Shown here piece by piece: positions 19,101 to 55,339 of a DNA stretch of 64,000 nt; position 1 is the first letter of the stretch; each line of letters opens with the position of its first letter. The DNA lies in the IMG/VR virus record IMGVR_UViG_3300045988_108162, positions 12,467 to 76,466 of that record; one strand, 5' to 3'. The notes below the pieces were generated by a model that was not told where the DNA came from, made no database searches, and saw nothing but the letters and a program-made list of their open reading frames with translations. Source of the DNA: a virus. The position numbers and the translations under genes are program-made.

Positions 19101-22100
19101 AGGAAAAGATCTATACGGAACAGATGGAAAAGTGGGATGCTGAAAATTCGGAACTGGAATTTAGTGAAAGTTATGCCACAAGAATGGAATCCATATACAA
19201 AAAGGCTGAAGAAGAATTAGGGCATCCAGTTTCTCAAACAACCAAAGAATACCTTAATGCTCTATCCAGGCAAAAACGGATACTGAGGCAGCCTTTTATT
19301 GATAGCGGTGGTAATTTTGATGAAGTTGCCTATTTTAAAAGCAGCAATTACGAAGAAGAAGGACTGCTTCGTAAACAACGTAAAGAAGCAGCTTCAGAAT
19401 ACATATATGTAGGAACCAGGAGAGTGGAAAAAACCGGCGACCAACTTAAGATGGCCAAAGAAATACAAGCTATAAATGAAGTTTGGAGAAAGGAATCAAA
19501 TAATGTTACTAATGCCGTATCAGAATCGTTTTTGCAAAAATTGAGAGCGATTCAGAGCGAATCAGGAGGGGAAGCTGCATTGAGAACGCTTATGTTGGGT
19601 GGTCACCTGTCATTCAACGATCGGTTTTGGAATGATATAGAATCGGAACAGTCAGCGCGCACCGAATCAAATAACAAGGCTTCGTATCTCAAAATGGCGC
19701 ATGATATCATTAGTTCTACGACAAGCGATAGAGATGCGACTGACGTGGATTCTATTGTGAAAGATATAGAAAAAAATAAGGCTATTATCAAGGAAATAAT
19801 CGGAAACAATCGCGATGTGGCTGATATCGGAGAAATTAACGAAGCAACATTTACCTCATCCGAAAGAGATGCTTTTAGGGCCGCATCTGAAGCTATTGAA
19901 GCCGATTACGCTATTTTGATAGATTATGCTAAGATGGTGGGTCTTGAAGATATTGATAAGTACCTTACTAAAAGCAATAAGGCTGAAAACGAAGTAAATC
20001 AGTCTTATTTAAATGCTCTTGCTGACTCCAAGGAAGTGGAATGGAAGTTCGTACAACGTCATACTACGGCGAAGAAAGCAAAAAGGATTCAGGCTTTAAG
20101 GGATAAGCTGTTTAAGGCTGCTGATAACCGATATCTGTTTACCGTATCTGAAACCAACTACCTGTCAGAAAAGCTTGGTATAAGCAAAGAATTAGACGGT
20201 AGAGATTTTAGGAATGCTGTTAATGCTAAGATGGCCAGCTTGTTTTTAAATAATACAAGAGAAGAGGGTATAGAAGCTGACATAAAAGCGGGCATAGAAG
20301 AGGCCAATGCTATTGTTAATGAATTTGCCAGGAGCCAGGTCTTTTCGTACTATAAACGCATGGCGCCTACTGGATATGCGGCTATGATCGACAAAATCGG
20401 TCGAGGTGAGATAGATGTGGCGCAGATGGTTAAGGACGTACAAAACGGTACATCCACCCAAGATTATGGCATGGATATATCGTACCTTTCTTTCGATCCT
20501 GCAAGGGCATGGGTGGCTGAATCTGAAGCCGAAAATAGCGGCCGTAATCCTGATTATGTAAAAGATCATGGGTATGGTCATCGAATGCCTAAGAAAAGCC
20601 TGTATCGTGATGAATCGTATTTCAATGACTTTGGCATCAAGTATGATGTTGACGGTAATGAGGTTGCTACTAAAAATGTAGAGCAGTGGAATATGATTCA
20701 AAAACTCAAGGAAATAAAAAGACAATCCCTTGATCTATACAAAGAGCAGAGCCCGAACCTGTATGCTATTCCACAGATATCAAAACAAGACATAGAACGT
20801 ATAGAAGGATTGGGTATTAACTTCAAAAATACGGTTCGTAATTTTGTATCAGATCTGTGCCTGGACAGAGTAGACGATTCTCTATATGGTAAGACCAGGC
20901 AAGGAGAAGTGTATGACCCGGAAGACAGACTTAGGTCTATACCTAAATACTACATATATGAGTTGGAGAACCAAGATGATGTATCTCACGATTTTGGCTA
21001 CTCTTATTCGATGCTTATGATGCAGTCATCGTTATACAACGAAAAGCAGAAGTCTATAGAGCTCGCTCAAGGACTGGAACAGATGTTACTGAACAAGCAA
21101 TTTGAAGGCGGTAAGAAGGCTGAAGCAACCCAAGCATATCAGATGTTCAGAGACTTCTTCAACGATCATTATTATGGCATTAGGATGAACACCAAAAAAC
21201 TTACGGTGAACATCGGAGGATATACGGTAGACCTTACAAGAATTATGATGGCTGTTGAAAGATTTATGTCGGTCATGAACTTGGCACTGTCTCCGTTTGT
21301 GGCAGCTACCGGCGCCTTAACAGGTCATATCAACCTCATCATGGAATCTGCCGTAGGACAGTATATAAGCAAAGACTCCCTTAAATACGCATCGGCTGAA
21401 TTTTCACGCCTTGCTCCATCTTGTATAGCAGAAACCGGAGACATAGATAGGAAAAGCAAATTATATGTCATAGGTGAGAGAATGGGGATATTCAATATCC
21501 GAAATCGTATGTATGGTGCCGGATACAATAGAGCGGCCAGGACCTTAATGCGTTCGCCTATGTATGCTTTTATGGAAATCCTGAACTACCCTCTTGATCC
21601 GCAGGTTATGATTGCTACTATGGACAATGTTCGTTATTACAAAGGCCGGTTCTACACGTTCCAAGATTTCAAGATGGAAAAAGAACGCAATAAAGAACAG
21701 AGTACCATAAAAAGAGAATGGAACGCATTAAAAGATCGTACTTTATGGAGTATGGTAGACGTCGTGGATGGGAAGGTGGTTGTAAAGCCCGGATCAGGTG
21801 TTACTGTTGAGGAAGTTGAAACCCAGATGGCTATAACCAGGAATCAAGTCCGTAGCTTGTCGCAGATATGTAACGGATCTTTGAATGAAGAAAACCGAAC
21901 TGCTGCATCGCGCAACTGGATAGCCAGGTTCATGACCGCCCACCGAGGATGGTTGGTGCTGGCGGCTCAACGTCTGTGGAAAAGACGTGGCTTCAATTTC
22001 CAGACAATGCAAGAAGAGGAAGGGTTGTCAATTACGTTAAAGAATATGATAGCCAAAACATTTAGCCTGGCTTCCGAGTCTGGTATGAAAAACATCATAG

Positions 22101-24274: not shown

Positions 24275-24463
24275 TTAAAATTCTTTTTCGTTACCACCTT
24301 TTTTAGAGGTGGTTTTATCAAAAAGAGGGTCGTTAGGATCTGTTTTGGGATTATAGCTAAATACACCTTTAGCTATTCTCTTCATATCCTTCTCTAATTT
24401 TCCACTTTTACTACTTCTGATCGTAGTAGTGGTTGATATTGTGAATTTCTTATTTTTTTTCAT
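24275..24463 (-). CDS. Small basic protein (62 aa)
   Basis: Starts ATGAAAAAAAATAAG, an A8 run right after the ATG. It overlaps the transposase stop by 4 nt. Confidence 0.35.
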   Translation of the reverse strand: MKKNKKFTISTTTTIRSSKSGKLEKDMKRIAKGVFSYNPKTDPNDPLFDKTTSKKGGNEKEF

Positions 24464-25440
24464 GCCGTAATTTTCTTTAGTTGTGAATACCTTAATCGTC
24501 GTTTGGTATTCTGCAAAAATACATCGAATCTTTCAGATTCCGATAGATGTTTCGTGTTATATCTGAAAGATTCGCAATCTACATATCTTTGAAGATGTTT
24601 TCTCGACACCCAGAAATGGGTTCCAGAAATCATTTTCTTCAAATGGCTCCAATATCCTTCGATTGTGTTTGTTGATCTTCTGCCTATTACATACGCTCCC
24701 TTTTTGTGATATACTTTTTGATGATCAAACTTTTCTTTGTCGATCCCGTTATACGCATACCATTCGTCAGAATATATGGTAGAATTAGGGTGAACGGTAT
24801 TGTATATCAAAGGAAGTAAGGTTTTACCTTTTGTGTCTGTAACGACATAAGCGACAACAAATCCTTCTCGTTGGAGTGTCCCAAACACAGGGGTTTTATC
24901 TTTTAAAGATCTCCCCTGTGCATCTTTAACTTTATCCTTACTATGTCTATTCTTGTTTTTGCCACCAATATAAGTTTCATCCACTTCAATCTCGCCTTTC
25001 AAACACGGCTCTTTTATTTCAATACTAAAACAATTATGAATACGTTGAAGCATAAACCAAGCCGTTTTCTGTGTTACTCCCACGATTTTAGACAACTGTA
25101 AAGATGATACTCCTCTTTTCATTTCAACAACAATGCCTTTCCCTTCGATATTGATATACATCTTTCTTCCACCACATCCAAGGCTGTTCCATCCGCTCGG
25201 TACGTTTTCCACCATAGGCTTAAGCACCCAGCTTTCACCGTCTATCCTAATCCATCCAGGATCGTCTTTGTGCTTGTCGTACATATTTTGCCAAAAAGAG
25301 CATTCGTAGCACCATCCCTTGTCTTCCATGATAGTTCTTATCTCACACCTTTCAAATCCATCTGCATCCATCGTGTGCGGAGAATGAGGCTGGTGAGGGG
25401 TGCCACATTTTGGGCATACGAGTTTTAAATTCTTTTCCAT
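24460..25440 (-). CDS. IS1595-family (ISXO2-like) DDE transposase
   Basis: N-terminal CPKCG zinc ribbon. The HTH reads LSKIVGVTQKTAWFMLQRI and the catalytic core reads DETYIGGK...TIYSDEWYAY...NTIEGYWSHLKK...KHLQRYVDCESFRYN. An insert of about 100 aa sits between the ribbon and the HTH. Confidence 0.8.
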   Translation of the reverse strand: MEKNLKLVCPKCGTPHQPHSPHTMDADGFERCEIRTIMEDKGWCYECSFWQNMYDKHKDDPGWIRIDGESWVLKPMVENVPSGWNSLGCGGRKMYINIEGKGIVVEMKRGVSSLQLSKIVGVTQKTAWFMLQRIHNCFSIEIKEPCLKGEIEVDETYIGGKNKNRHSKDKVKDAQGRSLKDKTPVFGTLQREGFVVAYVVTDTKGKTLLPLIYNTVHPNSTIYSDEWYAYNGIDKEKFDHQKVYHKKGAYVIGRRSTNTIEGYWSHLKKMISGTHFWVSRKHLQRYVDCESFRYNTKHLSESERFDVFLQNTKRRLRYSQLKKITA

Positions 25441-29013: not shown

Positions 29014-30431
29014 GCCTTTATCCTATTATAATATTCGATAATCTTTTCTTTTCTATCTCCTGGTTTTACTGCCATATTCTCAGCCAAGAACCTAAAATAC
29101 GACACCGGTATGTCCTTGAATCTAATTCCTTCATATTTTCCAAACCACATTATTATACTGTCAAGATCGTCTTCTCTCCTACCATCTCCATTCACAGATT
29201 TAAGCGAGGCTGCCCGGCGAAGGATCTCGTCTTTGGTAATAATATCACCCATCCTTATATTGGACAGAAGTTGATCTCCGGCAAACATACACCAGCCCTT
29301 AGAAGGGAATTGTTCGATTGTCAAGTCTTCTATCCGACCGAAACGCCTCATGTTGTCGCAGCAATCAACTATCAGCGCCTCTTTCTTGTCAGGATGGATG
29401 CGGACGGCGCGGCCTAATATTTGGTAATATGTTGAATATGAGAATGTTGGGCGACCAAACATCACACAATCAAGTTCAGGAAAATCAAATCCGGTAGCAA
29501 GCGTTGAATAATTAAAAACCACCTTCAACTTTCCTTCTTTGAAATCGGATATAATTTGCTCTCTTTTCTTTTTGGTTGTTAGCGATGTTACGACACCGGT
29601 TATGGCTCCCATCTTGGCATTCATGAACTCTGATATTCTATTACATGATTCAATAGAATCCATGCAAACCAAAATGGCTTTACGTTCGTTCATAAGTTGA
29701 AGAAGGCGCTTGTAGATAGAGTTGTTTAAGCCATTTCGTACAATACTTTCTTTAATAGATTCGTTGGTGTATTCAGCTCCGGTGCTGTTCAACATCAGAG
29801 CCGATTCATCAAAAGACCATCGTTCGTACTTAAGTGGACACCAAAACCCTTGAGAAGTTAATTCTTGTATTTGAGTCACATGAACTATTTTCTTGAAGAA
29901 ATTATGCTCGTCTTTCGTCAGCATATTGAGCTTGCTGTAGTTTCCTTCCAGCATGGAACTGTAGGTTCGGAGGCGGCAGGGAGTGGCGGTGAAGCCCAGC
30001 ACCTTCGCCTCTGGGAACCTGTTCATAAACTCCATAAATTCAGAACCTTCTTCAGGAGAATACCCGCTATGCACCTCATCTATCAATAATGTGTCTATCC
30101 CTATATCTTTCAACCTTGCTACGTCTTTCTTTATGCTTTTAAGTGTAGCATAAGTCATAGCCGATAACTCTTTTTTTTTACATGAAGCAGAATATATGGT
30201 AGGTTTAGAACCGAATGATACAGCCTTCGCATAATTCTGCTCCAGAATCTCTTTAGATGGCTGTAATACAAGGATAGGTCTTTTTAATTCATGAGCTATC
30301 TTGCTAATTATCAAAGACTTCCCCGCTGCACACGGCAAGACTTCTATGCCAGGCTTCTTAGATCTTCCTGTAAGGAACTTAAGCCCGGCATCTACTGCCT
30401 CTTTTTGGTAAGGTCTAAGTTCAAAGCCCAT
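29010..30431 (-). CDS. SF2 DExH-box DNA helicase
   Basis: Motif I is LPCAAGKSLI, motif II is LIDEVH, motif III is GFTATP, and motif VI is YQILGRAVR. Confidence 0.85.
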   Translation of the reverse strand: MGFELRPYQKEAVDAGLKFLTGRSKKPGIEVLPCAAGKSLIISKIAHELKRPILVLQPSKEILEQNYAKAVSFGSKPTIYSASCKKKELSAMTYATLKSIKKDVARLKDIGIDTLLIDEVHSGYSPEEGSEFMEFMNRFPEAKVLGFTATPCRLRTYSSMLEGNYSKLNMLTKDEHNFFKKIVHVTQIQELTSQGFWCPLKYERWSFDESALMLNSTGAEYTNESIKESIVRNGLNNSIYKRLLQLMNERKAILVCMDSIESCNRISEFMNAKMGAITGVVTSLTTKKKREQIISDFKEGKLKVVFNYSTLATGFDFPELDCVMFGRPTFSYSTYYQILGRAVRIHPDKKEALIVDCCDNMRRFGRIEDLTIEQFPSKGWCMFAGDQLLSNIRMGDIITKDEILRRAASLKSVNGDGRREDDLDSIIMWFGKYEGIRFKDIPVSYFRFLAENMAVKPGDRKEKIIEYYNRIKA

Positions 30432-36822: not shown

Positions 36823-36836
36823 GGTTCTTATTTTTT

Positions 36837-37970
36837 TTAATACAATGACTGTTCTTCTTTTGTCTCTTGTTCTTGTTCCTGATTGTCCGTAACGTCTTCC
36901 ACAGTATAGAGCTTGGGCGGCGTCGGCGGCTGGTTGGGGTTCACGAACTTCGTCCCGCCCTCCCCGTACATCCATCCATGCCCCGGCAGAATCTCTGGGT
37001 GGATTGTATTAGTAAGCTCTTCCATACTAACTTGCCTTACCTTCAGTATATGATGAAACACCAGTCCGGCTGTCCTGAATGATGTTTTGTTTTCAGTTTT
37101 AAACCTATCAAGAGTCTGATACCAATCTTTCCCAAATATCATATACTTATCCAGCCCGTACCTACGAGGATTGTGCAAACCTATCATTAACGTACATAAC
37201 TGACCCAGCGTATCAGATTGGTAAAAATCAGAAAGACGCGGAGGCTGCTCTTGTGGGCTTTTTATCCTTCCTTCTATCTCTCTGTTGAATTGTGATATGA
37301 TGAGGAAAAATATGTTTTTATATACTAATTTAGCTTCGTTCATAACCGCCACCAAATCATCTATAGCCGACTTAGGATCTAACCCCATTCTTTTTATCAA
37401 AGCAATATGATCGACTTTAAATATTATAAGACGTTTGTCTTTGTGTTTGGTAGCTATATGATACACAGCCGCCTCAAACTCTTTTACCGTACACGGAGCA
37501 TCGATGTATATTATATTATTCCTGATTTCACCTTGAAGGATTTCAAACATCCTCATCTCTTCCACTGTATTAGAATCTTGCCTTCTTAATATTTCAGGAG
37601 CCCGCTTTTTCATATCCTGGCTCATTCTACGAAGAAGAAGATCTTGAGGATTCATTTCGAACTCGCAATTAACAAGAAAATAATCTTCTGCTTGCGGGTT
37701 GATCATCGGATTCATCACATTTTCCAATATCTTTTGGGCCACATACGATTTACCTACAGATGGCCGGGCTCCTATGGCAATAGCATGCTGAGGGAAAATA
37801 CCTCCAAGCAAAGCCTCATCAATATAATCGTATCCGGTTTTAGCGGGGATAAGCTCTCCCCGCCTGTATTTCAAGATATTCTCATACGCCTCTTCCATGA
37901 CCTGTTTAGAGGTCTTGAATATCCTTCTTATATCTATCCTATTTGCTATCTCCTCGTGCATTTTTGTCAC
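36837..37970 (-). CDS. DnaB-like replicative helicase (RecA-fold C-terminal domain)
   Basis: Walker A reads GARPSVGKSY, the DnaB H3-like motif reads ISQFNREIEGR, and Walker B reads IIFKVDHIAL. Confidence 0.75.
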   Translation of the reverse strand: MTKMHEEIANRIDIRRIFKTSKQVMEEAYENILKYRRGELIPAKTGYDYIDEALLGGIFPQHAIAIGARPSVGKSYVAQKILENVMNPMINPQAEDYFLVNCEFEMNPQDLLLRRMSQDMKKRAPEILRRQDSNTVEEMRMFEILQGEIRNNIIYIDAPCTVKEFEAAVYHIATKHKDKRLIIFKVDHIALIKRMGLDPKSAIDDLVAVMNEAKLVYKNIFFLIISQFNREIEGRIKSPQEQPPRLSDFYQSDTLGQLCTLMIGLHNPRRYGLDKYMIFGKDWYQTLDRFKTENKTSFRTAGLVFHHILKVRQVSMEELTNTIHPEILPGHGWMYGEGGTKFVNPNQPPTPPKLYTVEDVTDNQEQEQETKEEQSLY

Positions 37971-43159: not shown

Positions 43160-43619
43160 TCTTCTTCTCGCCTAATTTTTCAGCTCCCTTCTGAAGATCG
43201 TATTTAAACACTTCAATGATTTTCGTTTCCACAATAGACTCGCAATTCCAGTCTCCTAACGTACCCTGCATACCTTTAGTCAACACAGCTTCGGCATCCT
43301 TAGGATTGCCGGCCTGGATATACATATAGCATGGAGTTTTCTTTTCTTTACCTTTCTTTTCATCCAGTGTAATGTAATTCACCTTACACTTATACCAGTA
43401 CTCAGCTTCTCCGTTGAAGAAGATTTCCGACACTTTAATAGGATTAATTTTTACAACCTCGAAAGAATTGTACAAATCCTTGAAGATCTCCAACGATCTT
43501 GATTCTGCCTCTGTGTAAGACAAGGCATCCACTAAATACTTTTCAGTTACTTTCTTTTTTTTGCCGTTCTCGATATTATCAATCTCGGCTTTTACCGTAA
43601 TTTCAAACCAGCGATTCAT
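43149..43619 (-). CDS. Hypothetical protein
   Basis: 156-aa ORF with an in-frame A8 (KKKK). Confidence 0.5.
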   Translation of the reverse strand: MNRWFEITVKAEIDNIENGKKKKVTEKYLVDALSYTEAESRSLEIFKDLYNSFEVVKINPIKVSEIFFNGEAEYWYKCKVNYITLDEKKGKEKKTPCYMYIQAGNPKDAEAVLTKGMQGTLGDWNCESIVETKIIEVFKYDLQKGAEKLGEKKSEE

Positions 43620-49908: not shown

Positions 49909-50571
49909 TCATTTCAGCTCTTTAATTAAAGCATCCGCATATATTACAGCTAATTCAGCCGCCTTATCACACGTCTCCAATATTAATTCACCGTGAGGTC
50001 CACGCCCTGATACGGATGTGATCGGAAGCATGGTTTTTGCCATCTCGTATCTACGTTGTTCCCAATCTACATGGGTGTTACACGGTTCTTGATTGACCTG
50101 TATATATCTTCCTTCAATATTAGAAGATCTTAATGTTTCCGCATTCTCTTCGCCGAATGCAACCAGAATAGACCCACATCCTGGACTTTCACCTATTGTT
50201 CCATCTTCTCTGTGGAATTTTATCCTTCCTTTCATGAACAATATACCTTTTGCTTTCGGGAATACAACATCCTGAAACATCTTATTGTCAAGACGATTAA
50301 AAAGAAGAGCTATTCCATTATTGTGCTCTACCATACGAGCAATAAAATGCTCTATAGTCGGTCTTGAATAAGGTGGGTTTAACCATACCCTTCCTTCCCA
50401 TTTTTGTTTTAATCCATCTTGCTCTTTGTTATACATAACCCTGGCTGTCCTCCATAACGGACGCATAGGCGCACATGGATCTAAATCAAATTTCCCTAAA
50501 GCGTCTATAATTTCTTTAGGTGTGTACCATTCATCTGTACTGTTTTTAGATTTCTCAAATGATGTATTCAT
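49909..50571 (-). CDS. dam: Phage Dam-family DNA N6-adenine methyltransferase
   Basis: Reads DEWYTPKEIIDALGKFDLDPCAP, then WLNPPYS; both are diagnostic of the phage Dam family. Confidence 0.75.
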   Translation of the reverse strand: MNTSFEKSKNSTDEWYTPKEIIDALGKFDLDPCAPMRPLWRTARVMYNKEQDGLKQKWEGRVWLNPPYSRPTIEHFIARMVEHNNGIALLFNRLDNKMFQDVVFPKAKGILFMKGRIKFHREDGTIGESPGCGSILVAFGEENAETLRSSNIEGRYIQVNQEPCNTHVDWEQRRYEMAKTMLPITSVSGRGPHGELILETCDKAAELAVIYADALIKELK

Positions 50572-50589: not shown

Positions 50590-51252
50590 TTAATCCCATC
50601 CTCCAGTAGTGTACAAAGATACATCTTCCTCCTCTACGTTTACACCTTTAATAGCCTGTAGAAGTTTTTTCTTTGTCTCCCGGCACATATTGTAACCATA
50701 TCCTTTATACCGATATGAGCGCTCCCATGTGCTTACTGGAAAAGGAATATTTTCGTCAATGACCAGCCTCTTCATATGAAGATGTTCGAAGAATTTCTCA
50801 TGATAGAGTAGTTTGTACTCGTATGCTACTATGCTTGCGGATGAGAATGGAAAATAATCATCTTCTTTTTCTTCGTATTTGGGCTCCTTATAGTAAGCCA
50901 TTTTTGTCACAGTAAAATCGAAGCTCCTAAGAATCTCTTTCGGCTTTCCAAACTCTGACTCTATGAACTCTATCCATACCTTTTCTCCCTCTTTCTGGAA
51001 CGCACATACCTTCTCATTTCTGTACTTAAATTTCCATCCTTCTTTCTGATGTTTTTCATCATTGAACGAATCAATAGCCTCCTGAAAATCGCTTTCACTT
51101 TCAAAGAAAATATCAATGTCTTTTACTCTTTCTCCGGAAAGGATATTTTTAAAACATCCACCAGCTATGAATCCTTTGTGGCCTTCCATATACTTGTCAA
51201 GCCATCTTATTTGCCAGAAATTATCTGGAGTATCTATTACAAAATTATTCAT
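50590..51252 (-). CDS. Minimal nucleotidyltransferase-fold (Pol-beta-like) protein
   Basis: GGCFKNILSGERVKDIDIFF matches the hG[GS]...DhD pattern. A third acidic residue probably lies in RSFDFT. Confidence 0.5.
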   Translation of the reverse strand: MNNFVIDTPDNFWQIRWLDKYMEGHKGFIAGGCFKNILSGERVKDIDIFFESESDFQEAIDSFNDEKHQKEGWKFKYRNEKVCAFQKEGEKVWIEFIESEFGKPKEILRSFDFTVTKMAYYKEPKYEEKEDDYFPFSSASIVAYEYKLLYHEKFFEHLHMKRLVIDENIPFPVSTWERSYRYKGYGYNMCRETKKKLLQAIKGVNVEEEDVSLYTTGGWD

Positions 51253-52303: not shown

Positions 52304-52552
52304 TCATATATGTTCCATTTTCAAAATTTCTGGGGACAGATATTCTTGTAACTCCAATTTGCGTATTGGAACAAGACAATCCAGATGTTTAGCATCCATT
52401 TCTTGCTTATCTTCATCTACCCACGTTAAAGTACCTTCACTGCTACATTCCGGGCATTTGTCAGCTCCACATGGAAGAAGCATTTGTGCTCCACATAAGA
52501 CACATCTTACCCAGTCTCCGTGCTGCACCCCTTCGTATGTTCTTGTTTTCAT
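52304..52552 (-). CDS. Small Zn-ribbon protein
   Basis: Contains CVLCG...CPEC. Confidence 0.4.
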   Translation of the reverse strand: MKTRTYEGVQHGDWVRCVLCGAQMLLPCGADKCPECSSEGTLTWVDEDKQEMDAKHLDCLVPIRKLELQEYLSPEILKMEHI

Positions 52553-52554
52553 AT

Positions 52555-52749
52555 TTATTGTTTATCATTTATAACATTTACTTCTTTACTCCACAAACGT
52601 CTCTTATATATCGGAGTGATGCCGATCAGAATACCACTATCTTCACCCCAATACTGAAGTGTTTTGGACTCAATTTTATGATGCAATTCCTGTATCCCTC
52701 CTTTGTTTCTGTCATAAGGATAAAAATCAGATAATTTTACCATTTTCAT
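52555..52749 (-). CDS. Small hypothetical protein
   Basis: 64-aa ORF. Confidence 0.35.
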   Translation of the reverse strand: MKMVKLSDFYPYDRNKGGIQELHHKIESKTLQYWGEDSGILIGITPIYKRRLWSKEVNVINDKQ

Positions 52750-53483
52750 TTTTCTGGATTTTCAGTAGTTCCTAAAAGACATTCATTACCCTCAAAATGA
52801 ATACAATAATCCCATAATGTTCCATTGGAACATTCGTACTTATAAGGCAATCCATTATAATCGTCCACAATTTCCCTTGCAAACAAACTGATATTCCATT
52901 TTTTATTTCCTTCTTTTCTTACCAGCACTTTGTCAAACGGCTTAAAATCATATTTCAGCTTTTCTTCAATCCCAAAGAAGCGTTTCAGATACTCTTTAGC
53001 TTCAGGTTCTTTGCTTGCCTTTAATGCGTCAACCAACTTTTGTCTTTCGGATTCAGTGGCAAATCTGTATTTTTCTATCTTATTTTCCCAAGCAGATAAA
53101 CCATCTTCTATTTTAAGAATACCTTTTTGATTTAAAGAGGCATAAAAAGACGTTAAATATTTCCCATGTGTATTTAAAATAAAGATATAGCTACCATCTT
53201 TATTACTTAACACCTCTCCATCTTTAAACGTAGTATATTCTGGAACTTCAAGAAGGAGTCGATTTGCGCTACTAAGTGCTTTTCCTGTAGCAGAAAACCA
53301 GTCTGCCGATACAGAAATCGAATGAATTACAACCAATAACGGACAATTTGACGAATTGTCTTCATATACGATTTCTGCTCTATTTTGTCCTTTCTCTGTC
53401 ACAATACGACCTGCTATTTCCCCTATGTTTATTTTTTTCGCCGTTTCTAAATCAAACGGAATTGTTGCTGTTCTCTGTTCCAT
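52746..53483 (-). CDS. Hypothetical protein, intact copy of a tandem paralog pair
   Basis: 245 aa. It shares an N-terminus (PFDLETAKKI) and a C-terminal DFKPFDxVLVR...LFAR...YKYEC...GNExLLGT domain with the next gene. Confidence 0.55.
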   Translation of the reverse strand: MEQRTATIPFDLETAKKINIGEIAGRIVTEKGQNRAEIVYEDNSSNCPLLVVIHSISVSADWFSATGKALSSANRLLLEVPEYTTFKDGEVLSNKDGSYIFILNTHGKYLTSFYASLNQKGILKIEDGLSAWENKIEKYRFATESERQKLVDALKASKEPEAKEYLKRFFGIEEKLKYDFKPFDKVLVRKEGNKKWNISLFAREIVDDYNGLPYKYECSNGTLWDYCIHFEGNECLLGTTENPEK

Positions 53484-53487
53484 GATC

Positions 53488-54232
53488 TTATTTGCTTTTA
53501 TTAGTTCCTAAAAGATGCTCATTTCCTTGGTATGGGATACACTCTTTGTATCTCAAACCTCCCAAGCATTCATATTTATATTCTTCTTCTCTTACTCTGG
53601 CAAATAAGTGTAGATTCCAATTTTCCAAATTGCTTGCTCTCACCAAGACTTGATCGAATGGCTTAAAATCGCATTTCTTTTCTTTAGTCAGCAAGTATTC
53701 GTACTCACTTAGATATTGTTTTATTATTCCTGCTTTTTTAAGGTTTTCTGTATTAGCAATTCTTTCAGCAAAAGATTTTTTCTCTTCCTCTGTGGCTAAT
53801 CTAACATACTTGGATTTATCCTCACCACACACACTTGTCCATATTGGAGCTTCTTCAGATGTAATCTCGCCATATGCCGATATACCATATATGCATCCCA
53901 TATCTCCTTCTCTATTAATAATACCATTATATATAAATGGGTTCCCAAGCGTGCTTATTAATACATCTCCTTTCTTAAAATACGCTCCAGCCTCTACTTC
54001 CAATTCCAGAACGTTGTTGAAAAAAGTACGACCTTCTGTATCGGCATATATAGCACTTATCCCAGATTCATCTTTTTTTTACAAAAAGTAAATTATAACG
54101 ATCTGCACAGTCTTTTGACTCATATACAAATTCTATTTTAATATTACCAATTAATACTGAACCTTCTATTTCTCCGCTTTTAATTTTTCTCGCCGTATTT
54201 AAATCAAACGGAACAATAATTGAATTTTCCAT
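53488..54232 (-). pseudogene. Frameshifted paralog of the 52746-53483 gene, interrupted at a plus-strand T8 tract (an A8 in the minus-strand coding sense) at 54070-54077; alternatively a slippage-dependent gene
   Basis: ATG at 54232 gives MENSIIVPFDLNTARKIKSGEIEGS...LLFVKKR, then a stop. Deleting one A fuses it in frame to the track ORF 53488-54003, giving about 247 aa co-linear with the paralog. Confidence 0.45.
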
Positions 54233-54274: not shown

Positions 54275-55339
54275 TTAAACCCATCCCAGTTGTTTTGCTA
54301 TTCTCTCCATTTCGTCATATGCTATCCTATGACATCCAGCGGTTAGCAAATCGTTTTCGTACCGATTTAGACTCCACTGGTGACCGGTGACGTCCTCCAC
54401 CAGACCGTGCCGAAACTCGGCGCCCCGGTGCATTGCCGACACAGCCCGCCACAGTTTTCTGGCTTCTGCTACTCCAATCTTTATCTGTTTACTTGTCTCA
54501 ATAATATTTCTTTTTATACGGATCCAGGCGTTAGGTTTTTCACCAGGAATATAGAAAGGTGTATTCAAGAAATTTATTTCTCCTGACTTCCACTCTTCCA
54601 GTTTTTCATCAAAATCCTTGTAACGGGCTTCTTCTTCCTTTCTTAATCTCTCTAATTTTATTCTTTCTCTTTCTTCCTCACCCTTTCTCCATCTTTCAGA
54701 TCTTTCTGAATACTTAATCCATGTACCTTCCCCGCAAACTTCATCTACAATCACATTAACGGTTCCAAGGACTTCCAGTGCTTGATGATTCAACAATATC
54801 TGGAAAATGTGTTTCAATTCACGGACATACTCACGTTTAATCTTATCTGATTTCCGTGATAATTCATGGTTAGTTCCAAGCCATTCGTTTGCGCTCTTTT
54901 TAAGAAGACGCCGGGGAGTCCCCATATCGAAGAACTCAATATAATCCATCAGATTTTTAAACGTTTCCCAAATATCTCGATAGGACAATTCGGTTCTTGC
55001 TTTTTTGTATTTTTCAATAGCATCTTTAATGGATTCCAACATATTGGTAACAAAGAGCATGTTACCGATACAATATGACATATTACATTCAACATAGAAC
55101 ACCTTTGAACCAGTTGGTATTGCTTCACGAACATAATATTGATGCTTGCTTGTAGTAGAAGAATAGTATGTATCATTAATCAAATACGCCTTTTCTCCAC
55201 GCTTGTTTCGCACGATTCTTCCGACCTCAAAATGTCTTCCATAGGAATAAATACTTTCACCTTCAAAATAGAAGTTACTACCATGCGCTGATTCTTGCTT
55301 TTCGTTTGCCCATAAGTGAGCGACCATTGAATTGTTCAT
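54275..55339 (-). CDS. Hypothetical protein
   Basis: 354-aa ORF with a GC-rich atypical segment near its 3' end. Confidence 0.55.
   Translation of the reverse strand: MNNSMVAHLWANEKQESAHGSNFYFEGESIYSYGRHFEVGRIVRNKRGEKAYLINDTYYSSTTSKHQYYVREAIPTGSKVFYVECNMSYCIGNMLFVTNMLESIKDAIEKYKKARTELSYRDIWETFKNLMDYIEFFDMGTPRRLLKKSANEWLGTNHELSRKSDKIKREYVRELKHIFQILLNHQALEVLGTVNVIVDEVCGEGTWIKYSERSERWRKGEEERERIKLERLRKEEEARYKDFDEKLEEWKSGEINFLNTPFYIPGEKPNAWIRIKRNIIETSKQIKIGVAEARKLWRAVSAMHRGAEFRHGLVEDVTGHQWSLNRYENDLLTAGCHRIAYDEMERIAKQLGWV

Follow-up and report, generated by a model that had tools for sequence, protein, structure and literature searches.

In cultured Campylobacter phages, hypermutable polyG tracts located in receptor-binding genes reportedly vary in length and give rise to phenotypic subpopulations, in work attributed to Sorensen and colleagues in 2021. 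Bacterial simple-sequence-repeat phase variation proceeds through slipped-strand mispairing in coding homopolymers, which toggles the reading frame, and its classical loci combine longer conserved tracts with demonstrated reversible switching and known phenotypes (PMC11868660). The closest described counterparts in phages are the A9 run of T2 agt and the A6 run of T4 rIIA, for which Gomez, Barrick and Waters documented +/-1 slippage that yields reversible null alleles and escape from host defence, with trade-offs of TgvAB against McrBC and of lysis inhibition against RexAB (bioRxiv 10.1101/2025.10.21.683753). In Citrobacter rodentium tssM1, an A11 run stands just before a premature stop codon, the downstream ORF lies in another frame and it is the out-of-frame arrangement that is conserved and functional (PMC4256274).

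Here we analyse a comparable run of adenines in gene B of an uncultivated human-gut phage of about 150 kb, using a window of 64,000 nt (37.6% G+C) that constitutes the whole stretch of DNA under study. Like T2 agt and T4 rIIA, gene B holds an A-run of at least 6 nt in an apparently non-essential ORF and presents +/-1 frameshift nulls at high frequency, and, as in the T2 and T4 study, runs in putatively essential genes are devoid of surviving variants. Unlike in that study, which measured reversion rates and the trade-off by laboratory experiment, the variation at gene B is consensus-level polymorphism across metagenomes, and it involves two tandem paralogs, each with a variable run. The locus shares homopolymer length variation with the Campylobacter phages, but the repeat is an A-run in an early-region gene. 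It similarly shares a coding homopolymer with the classical bacterial loci, but its tract is short (7-8), unconserved in distant orthologs and viral. As in tssM1, the run immediately precedes a premature stop and the remainder of the gene continues in another frame, but here the out-of-frame state is an 8-nt minority allele. Finally, gene B carries a single disabling indel like any ordinary homopolymer-frameshift pseudogene, with second lesions or deletions in some relatives; unlike such a pseudogene, the same site has been struck many times, by gains and losses alike, throughout a large natural population, and most off alleles are otherwise pristine. We describe the gene B tract as working like a contingency locus; its actual membership in that class is possible and clearly the less probable reading.

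Genomic setting of the tandem paralogs

The only relative of this phage detected in the phage collection was csAssE-Sib (OR575929.1, 151 kb, 87% identical), a name for which a literature search returned no paper and in which the corresponding region is wholly annotated as hypothetical proteins. Over 12.5 kb, the window matches scaffold_58 of ENA ERZ28624104 (sample SAMN06165019) at 100% identity, and a scan for the locus in GTDB genome contigs gave no match, and hence no prophage or host evidence. The plus-strand arm encodes a huge virion structural protein, and the minus-strand arm encodes a helicase, a DnaB-like protein and exonucleases, followed by a variable block of small accessory genes that includes a Dam-like methyltransferase, an AAA ATPase, a protein with a precomputed Gad2 match and genes A and B (Table 1). 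A and B thereby belong to the early, replication-side arm. All the genes around the pair in this part of the window lie on the minus strand, with gene A starting 4 nt past the stop codon of gene B. Promoter and terminator scans around the pair yielded nothing above shuffled expectation, and no such signal was found between the two genes.

Table 1. Location of the genes, open reading frames and homopolymeric runs discussed in the text, in window coordinates; run composition is given in the coding sense.
Feature	Positions	Strand	Description
IS1595/ISXO2-type DDE transposase	24460-25440		Pfam E 4e-42
A9 control run	30171-30179		Inside the 473-aa ResIII/DEAD helicase gene; length kept in 33/33
A8 control run	36831-36838		Shared between the TAA stop codon of the DnaB-like gene and the spacer ahead of the next ATG
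Dam-like N6-adenine methyltransferase	49909-50571
220-aa protein	50590-51252		Adjoins the methyltransferase; annotated in csAssE-Sib as polyA polymerase or nucleotidyltransferase
Zinc-ribbon ORF	52304-52552		82 aa, after the 64-aa ORF
ORF downstream of gene A	52555-52749		64 aa, ATGA overlap
Gene A	52746-53483	minus	Intact 245-aa ORF, full-length paralog of B
A5 run at the end of gene A	52749-52753	minus	CCAG-A5-TGA; ATGA stop/start overlap with the next ORF
A7 run of gene A	53432-53438	minus	Encodes part of T-A-K-K-I-N; in frame in the window
Gene B, whole locus	53488-54232	minus	Split by A8; with A7, one 247-aa ORF
Gene B stop codon	53488-53490	minus	End of the +1-frame 3' part
Gene B, 3' part	53488-54072	minus	+1 frame, 194 codons plus stop
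ORF called in the 3' part	53488-54003	minus	171 aa, TTG start (gene callers)
T6 run of gene B	54020-54025	minus	Second hot spot, weaker than the A-run
TGA stop ending ORF1	54068-54070	minus	Premature stop of gene B
Gene B, 5' piece (ORF1)	54068-54232	minus	54 aa: native residues 1-53 plus Arg, then TGA
A8 run of gene B	54073-54080	minus	T8 on the plus strand; frameshift site, codons 51-53
Upstream gene (phrog_7247)	54275-55339		354 aa
Run in the upstream gene	55001-55006

Several features of the neighbourhood deserve mention in their own right. Counterparts of the 220-aa protein in related contigs carry the precomputed match to PF26128 (Gad2, anti-Gabija), which was not reproduced with a local Pfam copy. 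At the end of gene A, many relatives, including csAssE-Sib, present A6 together with a change at the second junction, and in A6 relatives A is fused to the downstream ORFs as a single protein of 393-402 aa (P0121, P0127). The end of gene A is a one-base fission/fusion polymorphism. In one relative (L438), a change from A6 to A7 in the run of the upstream gene splits its 354-aa product into 127 aa and 224 aa, which indicates that homopolymer knockouts hit several genes of the accessory block. Another relative (L380) carries a 99%-identical copy of the window transposase about 3 kb upstream of gene B, and similar transposase genes were called in two more (L384 and L437); these observations suggest that an active IS may be moving within these phage genomes.

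BLASTP aligned the products of gene A and repaired gene B end to end (85/266 identical residues, 32%, E 9e-30), and a tblastn search of the window recovered no third copy besides these two. A and B are hence paralogs, as an initial annotation made from the sequence alone had proposed, and the motifs that this annotation had singled out as shared (PFDL-TA-KI at the N-terminus and DFKPFDxVLVR...YKYEC...GNExLLGT at the C-terminus) proved to be aligned and conserved across 33 homologs. Profile searches against Pfam, PHROGs and PDB returned no match for either protein. Homology searches recovered 1389 homologs for gene A, and the A/B family encompasses 3578 representative clusters at an E-value of 1e-3 or better. 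The dN/dS ratio of gene B relative to csAssE-Sib is 0.33, compared with 0.07-0.23 for adjacent genes. Given this ratio and the size of the family, gene B can be regarded as a real gene. Its AlphaFold model (pLDDT 84) predicts several small beta-barrels with a helical linker between them, and comparison of the model with known folds returned weak Tudor/PWWP/Sm-like matches only.

The locus is also rearranged in many relatives. Some B orthologs (among P0061, P0104 and P0080) possess a C-terminal domain or tail of the A type, suggestive of exchange between the tandem paralogs through recombination or gene conversion. Chimeric proteins are encoded at the locus (P0040, P0041, P0087, P0105 and P0120), and in many relatives deletions join B to differing downstream genes. 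The A/B block is a recombination hot spot.

The gene B lesion and its states in relatives

In the window, the A8 run is read as GTA-AAA-AAA-AGA-TGA, so that the first ORF ends in ...LLFVKKR followed by a premature TGA stop. The A7 reading, GTA-AAA-AAA-GAT-GAA (V K K D), leads instead into the 247-aa ORF. The statement of the initial annotation that shortening the run by one base rejoins both frames of gene B is therefore correct, and only its placement of the tract at 54070-54077, which is off by 3, requires amendment. Reading of the TGA codon as Trp was also considered and rejected, as frame 0 then reaches a TAA stop 35 codons on and misses the conserved C-terminal domain. Relative to its intact orthologs gene B thus carries a disabling lesion, as expected of a pseudogene, and the signs of further decay that an older pseudogene might show were not found at the protein level: outside the tract, the repaired product is identical to that of an intact 247-aa allele (P0272) recovered from public contigs. 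Since the rest of the ORF is unchanged, the lesion is young, and the recent pseudogenisation contemplated by the initial annotation gains support from this identity.

The state of the tract in relatives was established by means of a flank-anchored pattern scan. The closest complete phage, csAssE-Sib, has A7 at this site in the alignment, and its ortholog of B (246 aa) is intact. Among 79 relatives from IMG/VR, the tract was A7 in 65, A8 in nine, A6 in two, A10 in one and AAGAAAA in two, and the corresponding figures for JGI/ENA metagenome contigs were 34, seven, one, one and one. A7 is hence the commonest state, accounting for about 80% of relatives, and out-of-frame states make up about 15%. 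The A8 state was present in JGI/ENA contigs assembled at 21x and 28x coverage, and sequencing runs with A8 alleles include SRR15417058, SRR13924455, SRR15417112, SRR35966528 and ERR13262040. In all, 19 of 114 fully covered relatives have a frameshifted tract, and a further 14 carry deletions fusing B downstream, other frameshifts or replaced ends, leaving about 29% of relatives without an intact gene B. Two features by which contingency loci are recognised, an intragenic repeat of 6 nt or more and +/-1 indels far above other mutations at the locus, were hence observed in gene B, the first in its A7/A8 run and the second, at the population level, in the 19 frameshifted relatives.

Exact-sequence look-ups in JGI, ENA and Logan, public collections that overlap (the same samples, processed by several pipelines) and whose contig counts do not equate to independent events, located the broken window haplotype on 21 contigs for its 54-aa 5' piece (P0240) and on 19 contigs (48 index blocks) for its 171-aa 3' piece (P0255), and the intact version of the same haplotype (P0272) on 283 contigs (490 index blocks). 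Under the same counting, a sister haplotype was found intact on at least 1000 contigs (P0271), with A8 on 308 (P0285), with A9 on 14 (P0292) and with a T6-to-T7 frameshift 50 nt downstream of the tract on 26 (P0291). Five contigs (P0296) pertain to the second, T-run hot spot of gene B, at which T7 or T5 in some relatives (L038, L375, L378 and L380) results in truncation to 85 aa or 78 aa.

These length changes recur. A8 was found on at least three flanking haplotypes, and in a neighbour-joining (NJ) tree of the gene, built with the tract masked, it never marks a deep clade. Fitch parsimony on this tree requires 14 state changes in 79 sequences, a count that frequent recombination at the locus can inflate, and the low resolution of the tree, together with recombination, leaves the direction of the changes unpolarised. 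Comparisons between close relatives convey the same picture. One genome (L377), with 99.87% identity to the window across 9.4 kb, carries A6, and another (L378), with 99.68% identity, combines A7 with the T7 lesion; together with the A8 of the window, three loss-of-function lesions of B are found on one near-identical background (>=99.7%). Both genomes encode the exact 171-aa piece of the window, as does L380, which combines A9 with T7. Two further relatives (L035 and L049) share 99% identity across 6.2 kb, with a sole indel that falls at the gene B tract. Three others (L061, L006 and L004) show several +1 homopolymer differences each and might be lower-quality assemblies.

The A10 allele of L415 is in frame and contains an otherwise intact 248-aa ORF. 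Its sequence is compatible with restoration of the frame; reversion is not proven by it, and no case of off-to-on reversion was demonstrated among the relatives. An argument for frame-restoring selection based on the presence of A10 and the absence of A9 was dropped, as A9 alleles do exist (in L380 and, on 14 contigs, in the sister haplotype). Overall, the sequences identify the tract as a natural, recurrent +/-1 hot spot with alleles from A6 to A10. The phase-variable switch invoked in the initial annotation is a plausible term to the extent that it describes such a hot spot.

A probable slippage knockout and possible adaptive switching

Gene B, a dispensable and rapidly evolving accessory gene, was very probably knocked out in recent times by replication slippage, at a tract with the behaviour of a phage contingency locus. 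We infer that the heritable +1 insertion of the window, from A7 to A8, was produced by strand slippage during phage DNA replication. Translation now stops after 54 residues, within the first small beta-barrel domain, and the truncated product would presumably have lost its function, so that gene B would be off. About 580 nt past the stop are left untranslated directly before gene A, on which the lesion could exert a polar effect. The A-run is the most mutable site of gene B, at which off alleles recur and segregate at roughly 10-20%, and the recovery of so many disrupted alleles suggests that gene B is dispensable. Second lesions were observed in 6/19 frameshifted alleles vs 14/95 others (p = 0.10), a trend only, in the direction expected if the downstream part of B is no longer protected.

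The main alternative retains this slippage mechanism and adds selection for switching. It postulates that the A-run is maintained, or at any rate used, to turn the gene off and on reversibly, so that B-off (and A-off) variants would be present in phage populations at all times, would escape host defence or some other pressure exerted via these proteins, and would revert whenever B is useful. We regard this as possible, and clearly the less probable account. It draws on the full A6 to A10 allele series, including the in-frame A10 allele with its 248-aa ORF, on the three different lesions of a single near-identical background, and on the fact that 13/19 off alleles are otherwise intact. However, B is also lost through deletions, fusions and double lesions, as would be expected of plain decay, and the absence of any demonstrated off-to-on reversion weighs against reversible switching.

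Gene A provides a second line of argument, as its coding A7 tract also varies, with A8 or A6 in its place in about 13% of relatives. Frameshifts of the two genes tend to be found together (7/14 vs 4/71; 2x2 table 7/7/4/67, Fisher p = 1.6e-4), but this association stems mostly from one lineage and is phylogenetically non-independent. The neighbourhood contains accessory genes related to defence, namely the Dam-like methyltransferase and the product with the precomputed Gad2 match, and T2 agt (A9) and T4 rIIA (A6) afford a direct precedent with respect to restriction and Rex systems (bioRxiv 10.1101/2025.10.21.683753). Against this, no trade-off is known for gene B. Furthermore, neither the KK codons nor the run are conserved in more distant orthologs, which present VRK, VKE or VTG, and, with AAA representing 58% of Lys codons and GTA 36% of Val codons in the genome, an A7 run needs no selection to occur. 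The broader proposition that the runs in both paralogs are wild gut-phage contingency loci, switching A and B, often together, against host defence, is likewise speculative and rather unlikely. The available evidence cannot tell the two accounts apart, fitting neutral or mildly deleterious recurrent loss and selected switching alike.

Control runs and the weaker alternatives

A very unlikely alternative is that A8 is itself functional, with full-length B produced through transcriptional slippage (loss of one A) or +1 tRNA-Lys slippage and the 54-aa peptide as a second product. The frame would be restored exactly by the loss of one A from the mRNA or by a +1 shift on AAA-A, the downstream ORF is intact in the window and some leaky rescue at A/T runs has been documented (PMC5009743, PMC6260861). 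Programmed sites, however, are conserved, whereas the out-of-frame arrangement of gene B is a minority state of about 15%, with about 80% of relatives at A7 and the run absent in distant orthologs. Programmed sites also rely on a sufficiently long run or a stimulator. By comparison with the literature, A8 falls short of known programmed slippage, which uses longer runs such as the A11 of tssM1 (PMC4256274), and it is short for bacterial RNA polymerase slippage, with the Escherichia coli enzyme slipping on at least 7 T and on A only above that number (PMC6260861). The AGA codon that follows the run is the commonest Arg codon in the genome and provides no hungry-codon stimulator, and additional lesions are found downstream in about one in three frameshifted alleles. 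The slippage switch of the initial annotation, understood as programmed expression of B, consequently lacks support in view of the A7 majority, the unconserved KK codons and the short run. Some leaky slippage rescue of B from A8 may nonetheless take place.

Homopolymers are classic sites of indel error and most relatives carry A7, so we also considered that A8 might be an assembly or sequencing error, with a true state of A7 and an intact gene B in the window phage. Runs elsewhere in the same genomes served as controls. In addition to the A9 run of the helicase gene, these included a coding A8 run in a DUF4494 gene (43555-43562), which was unchanged in 123/124 sequences, the lone change being a substitution and length changes amounting to 0/124, and a coding A7 run in the gene for the 2148-aa virion protein (19770-19776), whose length was kept in 47/47. 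The A8 run at the end of the DnaB-like gene, which falls on a stop codon and intergenic spacer, served as an unconstrained, non-coding control. In relatives its length was 7 in four contigs, 8 in 41, 9 in 68 and 10 in six, with the commonest allele reaching only 57%, and this variation may alter how far the stop lies from the following start codon.

An artefact would be expected to be irreproducible across samples and assemblies, and to be accompanied by similar length errors at equal or longer runs of the same genomes, and the data depart from both expectations. The exact broken products were recovered on 19-21 contigs from three collections (JGI, ENA and Logan), and A8 occurs in many unrelated samples, including contigs at 21-28x coverage. 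The coding A8 and A9 runs elsewhere showed zero length changes in 157 observations, and contigs with a variant gene B tract carry normal control tracts. The homopolymer sequencing error that the initial annotation had listed first is hence strongly disfavoured, as about 20 contigs share this A8 allele and encode identical protein pieces. Judged from these contigs, the A8 of gene B appears to be real and an assembly error virtually ruled out, its probability being marginally below that of programmed recoding. The least probable reading of all is gene fission into two functional proteins of 54 aa and 171 aa, both of which are called as ORFs in many contigs, since the break falls inside the first predicted beta-barrel, the 171-aa ORF begins at a TTG within a predicted strand and skips 22 residues, and other lesions (A6, A9 and T7) yield different 5' pieces.

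The control runs bear equally on the slippage knockout. Length variation affects 0% of sequences for runs in conserved genes, about 15% in the A/B accessory pair and about 50% in non-coding sequence. The fixed length of the coding controls and the variability of the non-coding A8 run indicate that length change arises everywhere and survives where selection allows, and the long A9 run of the helicase gene is notable as one held in frame by selection. The split gene should be annotated as one frameshifted (off) allele of a 247-aa gene, and annotation should neither "correct" the A8 run nor call two genes.

The A/B locus provides a clean natural example of selection filtering homopolymer slippage in phage genomes. 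If the runs of both paralogs did turn out to be contingency loci, they would supply population-scale metagenome evidence for a phenomenon that a preprint has shown only in cultured laboratory phages, and would mark a family of this size as a defence-interaction factor. Should switching prove both reversible and beneficial, the contingency-locus concept would extend from laboratory coliphages to wild gut phages, and the locus would provide a way into a large and uncharacterised family of phage proteins.
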